DNA from: a virus
Lineage: Duplodnaviria; Caudoviricetes
DNA: 64,000 nucleotides
Direction: 5' to 3' (one strand)
Virus record (IMG/VR): IMGVR_UViG_3300029305_005387
Positions 51,852 through 62,637 of this stretch are shown here, piece after piece; position 1 is the stretch's first letter, and the number at the start of each line of letters is the position of its first letter. The position numbers and the translations under genes were made by a program. The notes beneath the pieces were generated by a model that had not been told where the DNA came from, did no database searches, and saw nothing but the letters and a program-made list of their open reading frames with translations.

Positions 51852-53573
51852 TTAAAATTCATATATTAAAAAATCCATTAGCGGTGCGAAGGCTGCAACT
51901 TCGGGTTTACAAGAGACGGAAGCCCCGGTGTTCCAGTACGAGGACGAAACCAGAAAGTTCAAGAGGCACGCGAACGCACCGCAATTAGAACCAACGTCCG
52001 AACAACCGCCGAACAGGGCAAACCTGATATCGGTGGTTCTGAACCAACCTCCGTCGCAATATTTCGTTGTTGAAGAACCATTGAGCGTGCTCATGAAGAG
52101 ACCGAAATCGTTGACTTTCATATCATTGATATATCCATAATAGTAGTCATTGTTGACTAAGTTAGAACATACAGGACTAAAGCCAAGATTGATATATCCT
52201 TCACCAGTTTCATTGTAGTCTGTAGCTGTAGATCCATCAGCAGTTCCCTTAGTCATCTTACATTTCATTACACCATTATCCAGAATCAAACCAGCAGTTC
52301 TCTTCCAGATATTACCCCAGAAATGTTCAATACCGAATACCTTAACACCGAGATTTCTCTTGGAAGATCCCCAGAATAATCCCTTATCGTTCATAGTACC
52401 AGTAGGAAGAACACCATTGCCGTCAGAACCAGTAGGCTTATCATTGTAACCGTTTTCATTACCAAGACCAAATACAGACTGTGTATCAGTGGATTTACCA
52501 ATCAATACACAAAGTAATGACAGTAACTGACGGTCAGCAAGTACGTCAATATCCCAGATATCAACGCCTTCAGGGTTGTTTGCTCTAGCTTCCTGAATCT
52601 GGACAGTACCAGTCTGAGATCTAGTAGGACTCTTACCAGAAACAGAACGAAGTTTACCGTCAGTGTCTACCCAACCATCATATGCAGCTCTGTAGAAGTA
52701 AGGCATAATATTACCATTTACATCAGTATGAGCATATGCATGATAAGAATCATCTACCTTAGTTGCTGCGAAGTAGAACTTAGGCTTACGAGGAGCAGTT
52801 ACATCTACCTTCATGTATACAGTAGGAATACCTACCATTACGTTACCTGCACAGTTTTCATCGATAGTAGCAGCTGCACCATTAACTGTCTTAGTATAAT
52901 CGAAACGATCAAGTTCAACGTTAACTGTACCATCGAAGTTAAGAATTACAGGCTTGATATTCTTCAAGAACCATACGTTTGCCCAGTCACCGGATTCAAA
53001 CTTATCAGCAGTCATATCCATGTATGCAGGCTGATATGTAGCATTCTCACCAATGTATCGTACACGATCATATGGATCAGCTTCATCAAGATCTAATTCG
53101 AAACCGAATACTGCAGAAGACTTAGCAGTCATATCCTGAGCGATATCACGAGCAACAGGATTACCACTTGCATCGAAACCAAGGAACTGATTTTCAGTAC
53201 CAATGATCTTGTTCACCTTAGCTTTGTCAGCTGCAGGCATAAGACCAGGTGCAGACTCAGTAGCTGCTCCGTATGTAGTATCCTTTGTAGGAGGTGTATA
53301 ACCCAAAGCTTCAGTTACATTTTCTTTAGTCATCTCACCAAGAATTGTTGCAGCAGATTTATTTTCTACTTTATCCAACCCAAGAGTAGATTTTGTGATG
53401 TTATGAGGGTTTGAAGCTCCAGCATGCTCAGCAATACCAGGGGCTTTCAGAGTTACTTTGGAACCATCCTGTGTCAATTCAACACCATTGGATGCTTCCA
53501 GTGTAATAGCATTTTGACCATTGATTTTGGCAGGATCACCAACGACCTTGCCAAGGTTAATCTGTTTTGCCAT
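51852..53573 (-). CDS. Tail fibre / receptor-binding protein with C-type-lectin-fold C-terminus; DGR target
   Basis: Tail-fibre repeats NPHNITKSTLGLDKVENKS, VTEALGYTP, TTYGAAT...GLM.AADK; CLec-type GIEHFWGNIW; VR at the 3' end. Confidence 0.88.
   Translation of the reverse strand: MAKQINLGKVVGDPAKINGQNAITLEASNGVELTQDGSKVTLKAPGIAEHAGASNPHNITKSTLGLDKVENKSAATILGEMTKENVTEALGYTPPTKDTTYGAATESAPGLMPAADKAKVNKIIGTENQFLGFDASGNPVARDIAQDMTAKSSAVFGFELDLDEADPYDRVRYIGENATYQPAYMDMTADKFESGDWANVWFLKNIKPVILNFDGTVNVELDRFDYTKTVNGAAATIDENCAGNVMVGIPTVYMKVDVTAPRKPKFYFAATKVDDSYHAYAHTDVNGNIMPYFYRAAYDGWVDTDGKLRSVSGKSPTRSQTGTVQIQEARANNPEGVDIWDIDVLADRQLLSLLCVLIGKSTDTQSVFGLGNENGYNDKPTGSDGNGVLPTGTMNDKGLFWGSSKRNLGVKVFGIEHFWGNIWKRTAGLILDNGVMKCKMTKGTADGSTATDYNETGEGYINLGFSPVCSNLVNNDYYYGYINDMKVNDFGLFMSTLNGSSTTKYCDGGWFRTTDIRFALFGGCSDVGSNCGAFACLLNFLVSSSYWNTGASVSCKPEVAAFAPLMDFLIYEF
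51912..52025 (-). repeat. DGR variable repeat (VR)
   Basis: 114 nt, differs from the TR at 13 positions, all TR adenines. Confidence 0.95.
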
Positions 53574-54093: not shown

Positions 54094-57000
54094 ATGAATG
54101 AAGTTTTATTCAATAATCTCGATTACGGAGCATATCAACTCGAGTATGATGATAATTATTATCTTAGCGAGAATATTAAATTTAATATTGCTGAATTTAA
54201 TAAACTCTATACTCGAAAGATACGTCTCCCTGAGGGAAATTCAAACATCATCTATCTCTTATCAAATACGTTCAACGGAGCATTGAATATGTTGAACAAC
54301 ATTATTGTTCCTCCATCTTATAGGAAGTTATATTATCCTCAATATTCCGTTGGAACATTCATGAAGAAGAGATATAGATTAAATGTCACTGATAAAAAGA
54401 CTCGTGATGATTTAATTAAACAGAAAACAAAGTTATCACCATATCAAACAAAGGTACTACCAAATACGCAGAATAACGTTATATTTTCCTGCGACCAGTT
54501 ATACGCAGTAATGAAACCAATTGTAGACTCATTAACTATTCAGCGTTGTTATACTGAATTCTTTCCTGAATTTATTTCTATTTTAGACAAATTATCACCT
54601 TCCAAACCTGCTAATACCAAACCTGATAGTGGTAATAGAATTATCATTATCGATGCAGATACATTTGCATTCAAACAAGGTGCTGGTTTAGAAGAGAATA
54701 AAGCCAATCCATTATATCTACTATATTTATCTTTTTTACGAAATAAGAAAGTAAATAAAAGTGCAGTAGATATTGACATGATGATTTGCTCTAAAAATTT
54801 ATTTTTGAAATTTAATCCTTCAAAAATTACTATGGATCAATGGAATCTCTTCAGAAGAGCTTTATTCAGAATCATGAATGCTAATTTGGATGATTACACA
54901 GATAATCTTACTCCAGAAGAAAAGAATGAACTCAATGAAACTGGAAAAGAAAAAGTTTTATCCAATATCGTAAAAGATACTGTGGAACCATATGTACAGA
55001 ATGTTTCAGGTTCAACTAAAGAAGTTCTTCAACATGCAGTTCAAAAGAAAGTGAAAAAAGAAGCAGCTAAGAAAGCTGCAATGGATGCAGAGATTAAAAA
55101 GGCTATCGGAAATACGAACATTGAAAAACCTGACATTTTCCGTCAAACTATTGAAAATCCTAATTCTGTTTTACATTCCAATCCAGTAGTTTCTCCATTA
55201 TCAAATAAACAGAATAATTTATTCCAATCATTGGCAGGTAGTTACCAATCTCTTACTACTGATACAGGTATGGAAGTCGATGATGAAGACAATTACGATT
55301 ATGATCGTCCTGAAGATACAGAAGAGAATTTAGAAGAGTTTGAAGATGATATCACTGCAGATGCTCAAGAAATTCTGGTAGATGATGAAGAAGTTGCACA
55401 AGAAGTTCTAGATGAAATTCAAAATAATGTAGCTCCTCTTGATAATAAACGCACATCTCCAATCAATAGTGCAAGGGATAAAAAATTAAGAGAAGAGCAA
55501 AAGAAAGTAGTTGTTGGTAAAGAAACAATTGAAGAAATTCTATCAAGAGATGCTTCAAATGTTCCGATTCAGGCTACTGATAAATCTAAAGTAATGAAGA
55601 CGTCAAATAAAAATATGACTCAAATCAAATTTACAAATTTTGACAAAACTTACATCGATGAATTATACATGAAGGATATCGTTGCATGTTTCGATATGTT
55701 AAAGGATAAAGAAACTCCTTTCTATGTAACAGGTATAGATATAAAAGACACTTCTACTACTTTAGATTTTAAAGAAACATGGACAGTTCATTTGAAAGAT
55801 GAAACTGGTAAACGTCATACTGTCAAAGTAGATATTCCTAAATTTCAGAATGATCGTTTCATGCTTATCAATGGTACACGTTTCATTATTCTTAAGCAGA
55901 ACTTCTATAATCCTCTAGTTAAGGATACTCCTGATACAGTTATCCTTACTACTAATTTCAACAAGATTACTATTTGTCGTAAGGCAACTAAATCGTTGAA
56001 TTCTGTTGAACGAATTTTCTCTCTTGTAAAGAAAAGTGGAGATAATAAATTATTCATGCCTGGCGATTCCAGTAAACCGAACATGAAGTATTTATCTTCA
56101 TTAGAGTATGATGAGTTATCAAGAAGAATTTTCCGTTTCAAAACAGATACATGTGAAATTTGTTTCTCTAGAGATTATATCAAAGATAATATGAGTGACA
56201 GCATTCCGACAAATATGAAGGGTAACGAATTCTTTATTGGTATTGAAGGAAATGAACCAATTCTTATCAATGAGGATACTGGCTTAGATAGACATAATCG
56301 TACTATTATTGAAATCATCGAGCAGCACCTTCCTCCTTCTTATAAAGAAACCTATCATTCTATTAAAGGACCTACACAATCAATGTATGTTGAAGCAAAA
56401 CTTGCTGGACAGTTTATCCCTATTATTACAACACTGATTGTATGGAATGGATTGCGTAGAACTCTAGACAGAATGAATATCACTTGGAAATTCGATGATA
56501 AAGCAAAACGAGTTCCTCAATCAACAGCGACAACAAAATACATCAGATTCGCTGATGGTGTACTTGAATATGAATCTCAAACATTTGCTCAATTGATTTT
56601 AAATGGTATTTCAAAGATGCATCCAGAACAATATCGTTTTGAAGACTTTGATTCTGAAATTGGATATGATGAATATGTCTACTCACAATGGGGATCATAT
56701 AACGGAATTACTGAAATCAAACGATTCAATGAATTCCTTGTTGATCCAATTACGAAGCAAGTGTGTAAAGATTTAATGTTACCTGACGATCCTTCTGGTT
56801 TAATGATTCATGCAGTAAAATTATTATGCGACAATGCTTTCGTGTCTAAAGCATCTGATAAATCATATCGTGTAAGATCAGTTGAAATGATCCCATCTAT
56901 TTTATATAGCTGCTTAGCAGATCAATATAAAATTCATGTGAAATCAGGTCGACGAATTCCAATGACATTGAATCAACGTTGTGTTATTACTAAACTTATG

Positions 57001-58530
57001 GCTGAAAAGACTGTAGAACCATATTCAGTTTTGAATCCGGTTGTTGAAGTAAGTAAAACACATACTGTTTCTACAAAAGGTTACAAAGGATCGAACTCTG
57101 ATCACTCTTATGATGAAGAGAAACGTTCATATGATCCAAGTGCAGTTGGTAAGCTCGCAATTTCTACGAGCCCCGACGGCAATGTGGGTATAAATAAAGT
57201 ACTTGTTACAGAACCTACAATTGCTAATGCTAGGGGCTACAGAGAACCAGTAGAAGATATTAATGAATTGAAAGATGTAAATATCTTTTCTCCTGTAGAA
57301 TTACTAACTCCAGGTACTGCTAGAAATGACGATCCAATTAGAACTGCAATTGCAGGTAAACAATCAGGTCACATAGTACCAGTAGTTGATGCATCTCCTG
57401 CATTAATCTCAAATGGTTATGATGAGGCTGTTCAATTCCATCTTTCTGATGACTTTGTTATCAATGCTGAAGAAGATGGAGAAGTGATTGAAGTAAATGA
57501 AGAGATTGGATTCATTGTTGTAAAATATAAATCTGGTAAAACTAGAGCAATTAATACTAAACCAGAAGTTGTTAAAAACTCAGGTGCTGGTTTCTTCCTT
57601 TCTAATCAATTGAAACCTACCTATACAAAAGTAGGTGAAAAATTTAAGAAAGATGAACCTCTTGCGTATCATGATAAATATTTCCGTTATTCCAAGATGA
57701 ATGGTTTGCGATTCTCGATTGGACCTCTTGTAAAGATGGGATTCATGTCTTCTTATAACACATATGAAGATGCAGGTATCTGTACAGAATCACTTGCTGA
57801 AAGAATGAAAACTTCCATTGTATATCAAGAAGTCGGTAAGTTCAAAAAGAATAATAATATTTTATCAATGGTAAAAATTGGCGATCATGTAAACATCGGT
57901 GATACATTAATCAAATTTGATGTTTCCGTAGAAGATAATGAATTAGCAAAATATCTTTCTAAATTAAATGAAGAAAATGCTGAATTATTATCTGAAGAAT
58001 CTAAGTCAGAAATTAAGACTATGCATGCTGGTAAAATAATTGATATCAAAGTGTATTCATTATTGGCACCGGAACAGTTATCAGAGTCTTTGGGAGCTGT
58101 TGTTCAGCAATACTTTGACAAAGGTACTTCTAAGAAAGAATTCTTAGAGAAGTTTGATCAGAATGATAGTATAATGAAAGCTGGTTATCTATTAACTGAC
58201 TCTACTGAACCTGTCAAAAGTAGATATAATTCAATTAAGGGTATTAAGGGCATTGACGTGCTAATTGAAATATATATTGAACACGGTGACGTTATGGGTG
58301 TTGGTGATAAGGTTGCATTATACGGACCTAATAAACAGATCATCTCTGAAATTATTCCAAAGGGATGGGAACCTTATTCTGAATCTAGACCTGATGAAGA
58401 AATAAGTGTACTGACATCTCCTGGTACAATTGCAAGAAGAATGACTAGTAGCATTATCCCAATCTCTGCTGCAATGCGTTGCATGGTCGAGCTGAAACGT
58501 AAGATCAAAGAAGAAATCAAATTCAAATAA
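54094..58530 (+). CDS. RNA polymerase beta, large N-terminal/middle part (probably virion RNAP)
   Basis: STSPDGNVG, DP.RTAIAGKQ..H, YNTYEDA, GDKVA.YGPNKQIIS RpoB motifs; lacks the extreme C-terminus, which 14600-15325 supplies. Confidence 0.88.
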   Translation: MNEVLFNNLDYGAYQLEYDDNYYLSENIKFNIAEFNKLYTRKIRLPEGNSNIIYLLSNTFNGALNMLNNIIVPPSYRKLYYPQYSVGTFMKKRYRLNVTDKKTRDDLIKQKTKLSPYQTKVLPNTQNNVIFSCDQLYAVMKPIVDSLTIQRCYTEFFPEFISILDKLSPSKPANTKPDSGNRIIIIDADTFAFKQGAGLEENKANPLYLLYLSFLRNKKVNKSAVDIDMMICSKNLFLKFNPSKITMDQWNLFRRALFRIMNANLDDYTDNLTPEEKNELNETGKEKVLSNIVKDTVEPYVQNVSGSTKEVLQHAVQKKVKKEAAKKAAMDAEIKKAIGNTNIEKPDIFRQTIENPNSVLHSNPVVSPLSNKQNNLFQSLAGSYQSLTTDTGMEVDDEDNYDYDRPEDTEENLEEFEDDITADAQEILVDDEEVAQEVLDEIQNNVAPLDNKRTSPINSARDKKLREEQKKVVVGKETIEEILSRDASNVPIQATDKSKVMKTSNKNMTQIKFTNFDKTYIDELYMKDIVACFDMLKDKETPFYVTGIDIKDTSTTLDFKETWTVHLKDETGKRHTVKVDIPKFQNDRFMLINGTRFIILKQNFYNPLVKDTPDTVILTTNFNKITICRKATKSLNSVERIFSLVKKSGDNKLFMPGDSSKPNMKYLSSLEYDELSRRIFRFKTDTCEICFSRDYIKDNMSDSIPTNMKGNEFFIGIEGNEPILINEDTGLDRHNRTIIEIIEQHLPPSYKETYHSIKGPTQSMYVEAKLAGQFIPIITTLIVWNGLRRTLDRMNITWKFDDKAKRVPQSTATTKYIRFADGVLEYESQTFAQLILNGISKMHPEQYRFEDFDSEIGYDEYVYSQWGSYNGITEIKRFNEFLVDPITKQVCKDLMLPDDPSGLMIHAVKLLCDNAFVSKASDKSYRVRSVEMIPSILYSCLADQYKIHVKSGRRIPMTLNQRCVITKLMAEKTVEPYSVLNPVVEVSKTHTVSTKGYKGSNSDHSYDEEKRSYDPSAVGKLAISTSPDGNVGINKVLVTEPTIANARGYREPVEDINELKDVNIFSPVELLTPGTARNDDPIRTAIAGKQSGHIVPVVDASPALISNGYDEAVQFHLSDDFVINAEEDGEVIEVNEEIGFIVVKYKSGKTRAINTKPEVVKNSGAGFFLSNQLKPTYTKVGEKFKKDEPLAYHDKYFRYSKMNGLRFSIGPLVKMGFMSSYNTYEDAGICTESLAERMKTSIVYQEVGKFKKNNNILSMVKIGDHVNIGDTLIKFDVSVEDNELAKYLSKLNEENAELLSEESKSEIKTMHAGKIIDIKVYSLLAPEQLSESLGAVVQQYFDKGTSKKEFLEKFDQNDSIMKAGYLLTDSTEPVKSRYNSIKGIKGIDVLIEIYIEHGDVMGVGDKVALYGPNKQIISEIIPKGWEPYSESRPDEEISVLTSPGTIARRMTSSIIPISAAMRCMVELKRKIKEEIKFK

Positions 58531-58562: not shown

Positions 58563-60521
58563 CTATTTGTTAATCATAATTACATACTCTTTGTTACCAC
58601 TGAAATGTGATTTGTTTACAATTTCATCTACTATATACTCCTTATACTTTACAGTATTATCTACTATAAATACATATCGTTCACATTTAAATCTAGATAG
58701 ACATTCGTCTATCCAATCATCACATGATAGGTCTTTTAGTTCAACATCATCCCAATTCTCTTTCATGTTATACGGAGAGCAGGTAAATAAACATTCATAT
58801 TCTCCAGTGGATTCAAATATATCTTGTTGTATTATAGATGCTTCAAATTGAATATCATATTTCTTTAAGAATTCAATCATTAAGTTCGACTCATTAACAT
58901 GAATCTGACTAATGTCTTGTCCTATATATCTTTTACCTAATGATATTGCTCCTAACATACGTCCTGAGAATCCACTGAATGGATCGAATATTTCATTATA
59001 TTGTGATAAATATTTATAAATAATCATCTTTGCTCTACCTGCACTGAATACGGATACTTTCGGTGCTATTTTGGATACATTAAATCCTTGGAGTATTTTA
59101 TTTGGATTTAAATGAGATTGATAAATGATTCTGTTCTTGATACATTCTTTCAACAGCTCGTCATCCATCCATGCATCATACGGTGAAAGTTCTCCATCTC
59201 TGTGAGCTCTGTAAATAGATGGATGAAAATGTTGTATAAGTCTATCTCCAATACGTGTATTCAATGATAATGAATTATGATATTTATCATTACAATCCAT
59301 TCTATATAATTTATCATATGAACGTAATAATTCTTTATCACTAAATCTCAACTCAGGAAATGGGATAGATCTAAAATGTTTGAATAAATATTCTACGTAT
59401 TCGTCGTAATTAATCATTAATAATTCTATAAGTTCTTTAAAGCATCTACCGATGTTCCCTTCCTGAATTATAAAATGAATTATGTCAGAATCCTCTGGTA
59501 TTGACTGACTTCTCTTTTCATCATATTCTTCTTTACTATGAATTCCATCATAATCACATGAGTCTGCGTGGAAGTAAGATCCATCTAAATCAACTACAGC
59601 TACTAATTCATGACTGAGATTATATATTCCGTAATCCCATGAATGTGCAGATTTATTTGTAAATAATACAATTTCAGGTTTCAAATAAAATTCATTAATC
59701 AAATGAGAATTACTAAACATTTCTTCAAATTTTTGGTGTAATAAATTATTTTTACCTGAAGATGATAAACGTTTTTTAATTAATGTAGCCTTTTGTTCAT
59801 TTGTGAGATTATCGTATAATACTTGTTTCTCCATCGCATATAATATTTTTTGATCGTGAGTTAAATCATGATACCATTTATGAGTTCTTTTATATAATTC
59901 TTTTTTCTCTTCTTCACTCAAGTTTTGATGCCACTGAGACATGGCTTTGGATCGTTCAAGTTTCTCTTCCATAGAAAGAGTTGCATTATATTCTTTCATT
60001 CGTTGAGATAATTCTTGTCTTTTAATAGCTTTTTCTTCTTCAGATAAATTAATCCACCATTTTCTTCCAATGACAGATTTCTCCTCATCTGTTAGTGAAT
60101 CACGTTTATCTTTCAAAGCTTTAATCATTGGAGTAACTCGTTTCATTTTATCTTTATCAGAAACTTTTCTCCAATGACGTTTTAATCCTTTAGAATTCTT
60201 TTTATTAATATTATTCCATTCTTCTTTAGATCTTTTGGATAGTTGATCTTTAGTTCTTTGAGCATATTTCTCTTTATCTTGATCCGATAGATTCTGATAA
60301 TGATCTATATGCTTCTGTCTAAACTTTTCCTGATCTTCTTTAGATAAATTAGAAAACCAATTTTTCTTTGCTAATTTTGTATGTTCTTTCATACATGATT
60401 GACATAAATTAGGAATATTACGTTTAGTACGTATTCTTTGATTGTCTTTAGAAATTTGATACTGGCCTTTACATCTGTCACATATTAAATCTATCATAAC
60501 TTTTTCTACCATATTATTCAC
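58563..60521 (-). CDS. Fusion of Zn ribbon, tandem helical repeats, Vsr/DUF559-like nuclease and DNA methyltransferase-like domain
   Basis: CDRC...CQSC; about ten (W/Y)xxL(S/T)xE(E/Q)K repeats; WDYGI...VDLDGSYFH; IFDPFSGFSGRMLG...YIGQD...FTCSPY. Confidence 0.6.
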   Translation of the reverse strand: MNNMVEKVMIDLICDRCKGQYQISKDNQRIRTKRNIPNLCQSCMKEHTKLAKKNWFSNLSKEDQEKFRQKHIDHYQNLSDQDKEKYAQRTKDQLSKRSKEEWNNINKKNSKGLKRHWRKVSDKDKMKRVTPMIKALKDKRDSLTDEEKSVIGRKWWINLSEEEKAIKRQELSQRMKEYNATLSMEEKLERSKAMSQWHQNLSEEEKKELYKRTHKWYHDLTHDQKILYAMEKQVLYDNLTNEQKATLIKKRLSSSGKNNLLHQKFEEMFSNSHLINEFYLKPEIVLFTNKSAHSWDYGIYNLSHELVAVVDLDGSYFHADSCDYDGIHSKEEYDEKRSQSIPEDSDIIHFIIQEGNIGRCFKELIELLMINYDEYVEYLFKHFRSIPFPELRFSDKELLRSYDKLYRMDCNDKYHNSLSLNTRIGDRLIQHFHPSIYRAHRDGELSPYDAWMDDELLKECIKNRIIYQSHLNPNKILQGFNVSKIAPKVSVFSAGRAKMIIYKYLSQYNEIFDPFSGFSGRMLGAISLGKRYIGQDISQIHVNESNLMIEFLKKYDIQFEASIIQQDIFESTGEYECLFTCSPYNMKENWDDVELKDLSCDDWIDECLSRFKCERYVFIVDNTVKYKEYIVDEIVNKSHFSGNKEYVIMINK

Positions 60522-60780
60522 CTAATGCTTTCTTGAGTGCTTCCGTAGTATCTTTAATCTTATCTGCATTCATTAACATGTGAACTATATTCGCTACTTC
60601 AGCATCAATTTTCTTTTTACATTCTTCTGAATCACAAGCGTTTGTATAATTCTTTCCTGTCATTATATCATTTGGAATTGCAAATTTATTATTACAAAAT
60701 CTACATGATTTAATAGTAACATTCTCCGGAATTTCTTTTCCTTCTTCTAATATGTACATATGTGGAATTAACATATTCAA
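60514..60780 (-). CDS. Small Zn-ribbon protein, paralog of 63767-63985
   Basis: CRFC...C....C; ends LKKALGE. Confidence 0.6.
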   Translation of the reverse strand: MNMLIPHMYILEEGKEIPENVTIKSCRFCNNKFAIPNDIMTGKNYTNACDSEECKKKIDAEVANIVHMLMNADKIKDTTEALKKALGE

Positions 60781-60911
60781 TCACCTCTTTCTTCTATAGA
60801 ATATATCATAATTATTTATTTAAAAGAGAGACGGAAAATATTAAATAATTTTAATCGAACGCACCAACTCAATATTTATTGGGGTTTCCCAATAGGGATT
60901 TGTGGTACGAG

Positions 60912-61025
60912 AGGTTTGCCCTGTTCGGCGGTAATTCGAACAATGGTTCTAATTGCGGTGCGTTCGCGTGCAACTTGAACAATCTGGTTTCGAACTCGAA
61001 CTGGAACAACGGGGCTTCCGTCTCT
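60912..61025 (+). repeat. DGR template repeat (TR)
   Basis: Non-coding, AAC/AAT-rich (11 AAY codons in the target frame), immediately upstream of the RT; matches the VR except at adenines. Confidence 0.95.
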
Positions 61026-61210
61026 CTTTTATCCGTAAAATCGGGGATTTAAAATTTTTAATGTATCGCCTATTCCTGACCTCATGGTCGAAATTTGCCC
61101 CAGCTTCGTCAATTCGTTAGTAGCCCGTCGAAAGCGAATGAAGGGGATAAAAGAAGGGTTAAAAATAACGGGCTATATTTGTATTTAAGGAATCGAGGTT
61201 ACTTTGTAAC
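61026..61210 (+). ncRNA. DGR spacer RNA between TR and RT
   Basis: GC-enriched, with stems such as TAGCCCGT (61121-61128)/ACGGGCTA (61168-61175). Confidence 0.55.
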
Positions 61211-62311
61211 ATGAAATCATATGGTTATCTCTGGGAGAAATTCATTTCTAAAGACAATATAAGATTATGTATAAAGCGTGCTGCCATTGGTAAAAAGAAA
61301 CGAAAATCAGTTAAACGTGTCATGGAGAATATCGACAAGTTCGTCGATATAATCCATGATTACGCACTGAATTTCAAAAATTGTTCACATGAAGAAATTA
61401 AAATATTAGATGGTAATTCTGGTAAAGAAAGGCTTATAATAGTTCCTAGATTTAAGGAACACGTAATACATCATATGGTCGTTGAAGTAATGACCGAAAT
61501 ATTCACGAAGGGTATGTATAAGCACACATACTCTTCGATTCCTGGACGAGGCTTACATAAAGCCATGAAAAAGATGAAAGCATGGATCAAGAAAGATCCA
61601 AAGAATGTGAAATACTGTTTAAAATTAGACATCAAAAAATTCTTTAATTCAATTAATCATGATATACTCAAAGAAAAACTTCATAAAACTATACGAGATA
61701 AACGATTTTTAAAAGTTGTAGATGAAATTATAGATGCTTCCGATAATGGAATACCTTTAGGATTTTATACGTCACATTGGTTTGCAAATTGGTTATTACA
61801 ACCATTAGATCACTTCATTAAAGAAGTTTTAAAAGTAAAATATTATGTAAGATACATGGATGATATGGTCTTGTTTGGATCCAATAAGAAGAAACTTCAT
61901 AAAGCTAAAGAAGCAATTGAAAACTTTTTACGAGATAAACTCAAACTTAAATTGAAAGAAAATTGGCAATTATTTAGATTTGATTATATTAAGAATGGTA
62001 AACATAAGGGTAGAGCCCTTGATTTCGTTGGATTTAAATTCTATAGAGATAAAATCACTTTACGTAAAAATATAATGTTAAGATTAACACGAAAAGCTAA
62101 GAAGATAGAAAAGAAAGGTAAGTTCACAATTCATGATGCAAGACAACTAATGGCTTGGTTAGGATGGATAGATTGGACTGACACTTACAACGTATATAAG
62201 AAATACATAGCTCCTTATATAAACTTCAAGAAATGTAGGAAGCGTATTTCACAATATGATAAGAAGCACTCAGAAATGCTCAAAATTCTAGAATTAAAGG
62301 AGGCAGCATAA
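61211..62311 (+). CDS. DGR reverse transcriptase
   Basis: 366 aa; GKER.I..P.F, Y.SIPGRG.H, LKLDIKKFF.SI.H, GIPLGFYTSHWFAN, YVRYMDD, DFVG; no maturase or endonuclease domain. Confidence 0.95.
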   Translation: MKSYGYLWEKFISKDNIRLCIKRAAIGKKKRKSVKRVMENIDKFVDIIHDYALNFKNCSHEEIKILDGNSGKERLIIVPRFKEHVIHHMVVEVMTEIFTKGMYKHTYSSIPGRGLHKAMKKMKAWIKKDPKNVKYCLKLDIKKFFNSINHDILKEKLHKTIRDKRFLKVVDEIIDASDNGIPLGFYTSHWFANWLLQPLDHFIKEVLKVKYYVRYMDDMVLFGSNKKKLHKAKEAIENFLRDKLKLKLKENWQLFRFDYIKNGKHKGRALDFVGFKFYRDKITLRKNIMLRLTRKAKKIEKKGKFTIHDARQLMAWLGWIDWTDTYNVYKKYIAPYINFKKCRKRISQYDKKHSEMLKILELKEAA

Positions 62312-62313
62312 CT

Positions 62314-62637
62314 ATGGAAGTAAAATTCAAAACAAGTCGTTCTAGCATTCGACCTGAATTGCTAGACAAAACTAGTTCCAAAACTCAGGTATTCGTTCGT
62401 CAGAACATCAAAGAAGTTATGGAAAAAGATCAGGAAGGTAATGACGTTACTACATTCGAGTTTGAGGAAGCTAGACTTTCTAAACAGGAATATGCTCTTT
62501 ATGTAGTAGCTAATGCCCTTCAGGATGCCGACGTTGAAGTTCAGTTGGCATTAGCAGAACTTGCTGAGATGGTTGACGCAAGCAATACTAATATGGAACT
62601 TGCTCTTGCAGAACTTGCTGAAGCAATGATGGCTTAA
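62314..62637 (+). CDS. Hypothetical tail-associated protein (XkdW-like position, upstream of a CD1375-type gene)
   Basis: 107 aa, duplicated LALAELAE C-terminal motif, GGAGG RBS. Confidence 0.55.
   Translation: MEVKFKTSRSSIRPELLDKTSSKTQVFVRQNIKEVMEKDQEGNDVTTFEFEEARLSKQEYALYVVANALQDADVEVQLALAELAEMVDASNTNMELALAELAEAMMA

Follow-up and report, generated by a model that had tools for sequence, protein, structure and literature searches.

Lineage-specific leader segments complementary to the template repeat in a phage DGR of the RT-18 type

The DGR considered here, from a gut or rumen jumbo phage, carries upstream of its template repeat (TR) a leader with two segments complementary to that same repeat, and the question that it raises is what an RNA of this kind could gain from pairing with its own template. 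We know of one solved DGR ribonucleoprotein, which depends on Avd, and to our knowledge the self-limitation of DGRs and the timing of mutagenesis are largely unknown. No description of leader:TR pairing was found, the literature consulted covering only upstream:spacer and TR:spacer duplexes in Avd-containing DGRs. The initial annotation of the 64,000-nucleotide stretch of DNA analysed here, which we call the window, proposed that the leader is an RNA clamp on the end at which cDNA synthesis begins, acting as a substitute for Avd or as a switch on mutagenesis. Comparison with related loci, designated by L numbers, suggests that the leader is probably an optional, built-in lock or stabiliser.

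The DGR locus and the core RNA of its clade

The window contains a real and complete DGR (Table 1). When the TR and the variable repeat (VR) are aligned over 114 nt, the mismatches are confined to TR adenines, the reverse transcriptase (RT) gene adjoins the TR, and the VR sits at the 3' end of its target gene. Together the two copies form an inverted repeat of 114 bp, 89% identical and separated by 8.9 kb, and recombination between them could invert the intervening genes. The layout in L001 is the same, with a remote and inverted VR. In L244, the contig of L008 and from a phage of the L003 type, two VR-like copies are seen, one sharing the strand of the TR and lying ∼450 nt 5' of it, the other remote, on the opposite strand. 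A 107-aa ORF (62314-62637) that abuts the RT stop codon belongs to phrog_18126, of unknown function, and its homologues lie directly 3' of the RT in L001, L003, L005, L015, L018 and L049.

Table 1. Coordinates in the window of the DGR components, the core RNA elements and the leader arms.
Feature	Position	Strand	Remarks
VR target gene	51852..53573		phrog_5302, tail protein
Variable repeat (VR)	51912..52025	-	Near 3' end of tail-protein gene 51852..53573
Outer leader arm	60821..60836	+	5' strand of 16-bp helix; 16/16 identical in L389
Inner leader arm	60856..60865	+	5' strand of 10-bp helix; 9/10 identical in L001
Hairpin	60877..60894	+	Just 5' of conserved AGGGA; 7-bp stem, 4-nt loop
Conserved AGGGA	60894..60898	+	Pairs with TTCCT 61073-61077, extending a-a'
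Strand a	60903..60909	+	Upstream of TR; upstream:spacer duplex
Template repeat (TR)	60912..61025	+	114 nt, 89% identical to VR
Inner helix, 3' strand	60957..60966	+	Within TR
Outer helix, 3' strand	61016..61031	+	Last 10 nt of TR and first 6 nt of spacer
Strand b	61025..61034	+	5' strand of spacer-closing helix; overlaps outer helix by 7 nt
Strand a'	61062..61068	+	Spacer partner of a
RT-18-like structured spacer part	61078..61155	+	Rfam RF03021
Strand b'	61145..61154	+	3' strand of spacer-closing helix
DGR reverse transcriptase (RT) gene	61211..62311	+	RVT_1, phrog_1423; 3' of TR

Searches with the RT identified relatives in viral contigs, in metagenomes and in genomes of Bacillota and other gut and rumen bacteria, and the TR and spacer could be aligned across them. 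A core RNA is common to ∼150 of these related loci, and because the window retains all three of its elements, its core RNA is ordinary for the clade. Strand a, directly 5' of the TR and following the AGGGA, pairs with strand a' in the spacer, ∼35 nt 3' of the TR. This duplex shows clear covariation, 6 of its 7 pairs being changed on both sides, and 82% of cells are paired compared with 24-45% (for both tested helices together) when the partners are slid. The AGGGA-TTCCT pair that extends it is nearly invariant across 54 relatives, and the RNA must therefore begin upstream of 60894. The spacer-closing helix b-b', which joins the 3' flank of the TR to the last spacer nucleotides, also covaries. 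The two duplexes cross in RT-18-type DGR RNAs (60903-61154 in the window), which amounts to a pseudoknot-like topology.

The spacer of this DGR clade corresponds to the Rfam family RT-18 (RF03021; Weinberg et al. 2017, PMC5737381). The model extends over 61078-61155 only, so that the leader, a-a' and b-b' fall outside it, and its 3' tail is modelled as unpaired, yet this tail covaries with the TR 3' flank. The window scores 33.1 bits against it, below the gathering score of 41.3, which 9 of 12 relatives pass. In most relatives (e.g. L017, L010 and L023) strand b' overlaps a purine-rich stretch a few nucleotides 5' of the RT start codon, where b-b' could also mask the ribosome-binding site of the RT; in the window, L001 and L003 it lies ∼34-62 nt upstream of that codon.

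The Bordetella phage DGR offers the closest comparison for this core. Its 'cPRT Stop' (avd:Sp) duplex has its 5' strand next to the TR and its 3' strand in the spacer, positions that are occupied, with covariation, by a-a'. The outer leader helix lies elsewhere: its 5' strand stops 75 nt short of the TR, and its 3' strand is mostly TR (10 nt, with 6 nt of spacer). We conclude that in this clade the Stop duplex is represented by a-a' and not by the leader helix. As in the Bordetella phage, sequence 5' of the TR pairs at or after the TR 3' end, looping the template, and two duplexes can lie side by side on one continuous strand, which here would be leader:TR-end and b:b', an arrangement predicted in L391. 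In contrast to the Stop duplex, the leader helix begins at a greater distance 5' of the TR, has the TR itself as its partner, shares nucleotides with b, crosses a-a' and occurs in few lineages. The Bordetella-phage duplex study surveyed DGRs with Avd only, covering 40 nt on the 5' side of the TR and 100 nt on its 3' side.

Complementarity between the leader and the template repeat

The complementarity described in the initial annotation is present in the window. Over all 16 nt the outer arm matches the reverse complement of its partner exactly, and the match cannot be extended at either end, the inner arm is exact over 10 nt, the two helices are nested, and the hairpin stands where it was placed. 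The outer target is also specific to the TR flank, because TR/VR homology stops at 61025 and beyond this point, over the final 6 nt of the 3' arm, the VR flank has another sequence. Two further claims fared less well. The absence of adenines from the targeted TR segments holds in the window, apart from 61031, which lies in the spacer, but it breaks down as a general rule, since the arms of L003 and L389 pair with segments that contain 3-6 adenines. The 'early-like motif' ATATATCAT upstream of the leader is not enriched in the window, with 108 one-mismatch matches against 93 ± 10 expected.

The leader:TR helices are more than chance. Both are included in the MFE fold of 60815-61040 (z = -5.9), and the duplex energy of the leader with TR plus spacer was reached by none of 500 dinucleotide shuffles of the leader. 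When leaders were paired with the TRs of other loci, a stem of at least 10 nt appeared in 3 of 501 cases. The global leader-TR duplex energy was dropped as a measure across loci, being uninformative because GC-rich loci dominate it, and exact stems were used instead. The first seven nucleotides of the outer arm, TAAAAGA, are the same heptamer as is found in b' at 61148-61154. Derivation of the leader as a duplicate of the 3' tail of the spacer was considered and rejected, local alignment being no better than for shuffled sequences (324/500).

That the arms are transcribed is suggested by covariation and by the participation of AGGGA in a helix, from which it follows that the RNA begins 5' of 60894; the RNA may nevertheless start downstream of the outer arm. 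Possible promoters are seen at two loci, CATAAT in the window (60807-60812), 8 nt upstream of the outer arm, and a perfect TATAAT in L389 (within 104-135), ∼13 nt upstream of it, and these candidates would place the arm at the RNA 5' end. L001 and L391 come from relatives of the window's phage; in L001 the leader is preceded by a large gene that shares 77% identity with the C-terminal portion of the gene at 54094..58530. In both relatives, a terminator stands directly 5' of the leader, ∼10-15 nt upstream of the arm region. At this terminator-leader junction the window instead has two minus-strand ORFs of 652 and 88 aa, missing in L001 and L391. They occupy the interval 58563-60780 between the terminator of 54094..58530 and the DGR leader, which has the appearance of a 2.2-kb insertion.

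Distribution and turnover of the arms

Exact leader:TR stems were compared in 85 distinct loci. Stems of at least 10 nt were found only in the window, in L001/L002 and in L003/4/8, with a single 10-mer in L116. Neither a TR-pattern scan (27 contigs) nor 41 bacterial genome loci yielded a new arm-bearing lineage, the only further 10-nt stem in these two sets being a palindrome in L245. Among ∼150 more distant loci stems were at chance level only, the longest being two of 10 nt, one of them palindromic, and no complementary stem of at least 8 nt was present in L393, L399, L392, L396 or L394, whose RTs are 62-69% identical to that of the window. For the L003 RT, no close relative was found in viral contigs. 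A metagenome scan gave nothing closer than 52% identity among the matches listed, and a 15-mer leader pattern proved non-specific when scanned against viral contigs. L390, L397, L398 and L478 yielded no leader, these contigs ending inside the TR or spacer. Together with L385, L387 and L388 they start 110-270 nt upstream of the RT, probably at assembly breaks resulting from the TR/VR repeat.

The arm-bearing lineages number five, of which four are closely related and make up the phage group of the window (RT 70-100% identical), the fifth being L003 (59%), and arms recur in every member of the phage group. The complementarity between leader and TR, which the initial annotation had proposed to compare across related DGRs, is seen within the phage group and in L003, but not in the ∼150 other loci. 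Closest to the window is L386, an independent contig with an identical RT and leader. In L389 (RT 82%) a 17-bp arm (142-158 x 345-361) spans the TR end and all of b, and is accompanied by arms of 12 bp (176-187 x 277-288) and 10 bp, the inner arm being a shifted, 12-bp version of that in the window. All 16 nucleotides of the window's outer arm are conserved in L389, within a leader that is otherwise 29-47% identical.

More divergent members of the group show how the arms change. In L001 (RT 72%) the inner helix is kept, a synonymous T to C change in the TR being matched by A to G in the leader, and 12 of the 16 outer pairs are kept in register, although by energy the L001 outer helix alone is not significant (70/500 shuffles). 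L391 (RT 70%) has a single 10-bp arm (876-885 x 1025-1034) that stops exactly where b starts and is predicted to stack on b-b'. In L003, a different phage with its VR upstream, arms of 15 and 13 bp match the TR, adenines included, and not the VR; they pair only inside the TR, without contact to strand b. Hairpins of unrelated sequence occupy the place of the window's hairpin in L001, L389 and L003. The arms thus vary in sequence and in TR target between lineages, with compensatory changes.

At the level of sequence, the conservation of the outer arm while its flanks diverged indicates that the capacity to pair with the TR is under selection, and that the TR segment which is targeted turns over. 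The same variability could instead mark the arms as non-functional by-products of DNA metabolism, left by template-switch errors or small inverted duplications of the TR and persisting as inverted repeats that have not yet decayed. Template switching can yield clusters of seemingly compensatory changes in one step, and the arms are perfect, differ in TR target from lineage to lineage and are dispensable in most relatives. We nevertheless consider this origin decidedly unlikely, given the intact outer arm between diverged flanks, the inner arm retained across 72% RT identity with its compensated synonymous change, and the presence of arms in every member of the phage group. The exact match to TR adenines also speaks against it and, taken with the match to the TR-only flank, rules out that the arms derive from the VR or from mutagenised cDNA.

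The outer repeats might also be read at the DNA level as the ends of an inverton that flips the TR and so switches the DGR off. They flank ∼180 bp in inverted orientation, which fits the usual size range of invertons. Yet several nested pairs of different sequence are present, a single orientation is seen in both the window and L386, and no recombinase is linked to the locus, making this reading very improbable.

The census also bears on the proposal that the leader is an RNA substitute for the Avd protein. PF05635 (Avd) has no match among the 18 ORFs of 85-190 aa in the window, and Pfam Avd was not found beside the RT in L001 or L003, as such a replacement would have it. However, it was not found beside the RT in 14 relatives without arms either, and arms are missing from ∼150 loci of the same Avd-less clade. 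Since armless relatives also have no nearby Avd, the arms do not track its loss, and we give almost no credence to this part of the initial proposal. Being missing from most of the family, the arms are not needed for DGR function.

Possible roles of the leader

Our preferred reading, to which we assign a probability of roughly 45%, is that the arms are a selected, lineage-specific cis-antisense addition to a standard RT-18-type DGR RNA, where they would gate its use, stabilise it, or both. In the window, the outer arm would pair with the last 10 nt of the TR and the first 6 nt of the spacer, and the inner arm with the middle of the TR. Because the arms would be the first part to be transcribed, and because the b' heptamer is present in the outer arm, they could engage strand b and the first nucleotides of the template before b' exists, so that the template would be locked into a conformation incompatible with the conserved closing helix b-b'. 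In all likelihood this would gate or throttle the start of cDNA synthesis, a direction that we infer, and the 5'-end helix may in addition shield this untranslated RNA from degradation.

Fold predictions are consistent with such competition. When the RNA begins at 60821 or further upstream, the locked fold outcompetes every fold that includes b-b' by a margin of ∼12 kcal/mol, whereas for starts at 60854 or 60897 b-b' is separated from the optimum by no more than ∼1 kcal/mol. In addition, each of the leader helices crosses a-a'. The clamp of the initial annotation survives to the extent that the arm covers the template 3' end, competes with a conserved helix and appears to be kept by selection; what falls away is its role in place of Avd. 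The L003 arms do not touch b, however, and competition with b-b' is therefore not the property that the arm-bearing lineages share.

A stronger form of this idea would make the leader a self-contained RNA switch, capturing the initiation end during transcription and releasing it by strand exchange with b', perhaps assisted by bound RT or by a cut in the 16-17 bp duplex. We regard this as a possibility, but a rather doubtful one. It recalls attenuators and riboswitches in that two copies of TAAAAGA, in the leader and in b', compete for one partner, and differs from them in that no ligand or signal is known and the output would be reverse transcription rather than transcription or translation.

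A variant of the switch in which the leader primes synthesis, as in retrons, is less likely. The msr-msd RNA of retrons likewise serves an RT and has a 5' segment that pairs, through the a1/a2 inverted repeats, with the template region at its 3' end, and repeats that flank the template are present at this locus too. The retron stem, however, is universal and positions a priming G, whereas the leader helix is optional, the RT is of the DGR type, and the arm is not followed by a conserved nucleotide for priming. Taken simply as a primer:template duplex, with the primer coming from the 5' side and 61015 copied first, the outer helix has a suitable geometry, since 61016 is the position opposite which its leader strand terminates. 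Copying would then omit the final 10 nt of TR/VR homology, much as the final 17 nt of the TR stay uncopied in the Bordetella phage. Most relatives, close ones included, lack such a helix yet keep a-a' and b-b', and across lineages no conserved nucleotide is found 3' of the arms, so that a priming role appears highly improbable.

It is also conceivable, though unlikely, that the arms only stabilise or compact the RNA, with no influence on cDNA synthesis. A 5' helix and pairing of the TR would shield the RNA from 5'-dependent and single-strand-specific RNases, and the arms would also draw the two RNA ends close to each other. Since the outer arm lies just 3' of -10-like hexamers in the window (60807-60812) and L389, the RNA could begin directly with this arm, and a possible 5'-end helix is what likens it to the 5' stabiliser stem-loops of Bacillota mRNAs, Bacillota being the main source of RT relatives. 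Protection would further accommodate the L003 arms, which pair only within the TR, and the L391 arm, which coexists side by side with b-b'. It would not require the arms of the window and L389 to reach 7-10 nt into b and copy b', nor would it require an arm that is predicted to displace the conserved helix b-b'.

These observations suggest that one Avd-less, RT-18-type clade of DGRs has a definable RNA core, consisting of an upstream:spacer duplex and a closing helix that cross, and that one phage group has added to it an antisense leader over the template start site. If the leader does act as a switch, DGR activity would be set by RNA folding. The locus provides a compact system in which RNA-level control of reverse transcription could be tested, and the leader could suggest a design handle for engineered DGRs or retron-like diversifiers.
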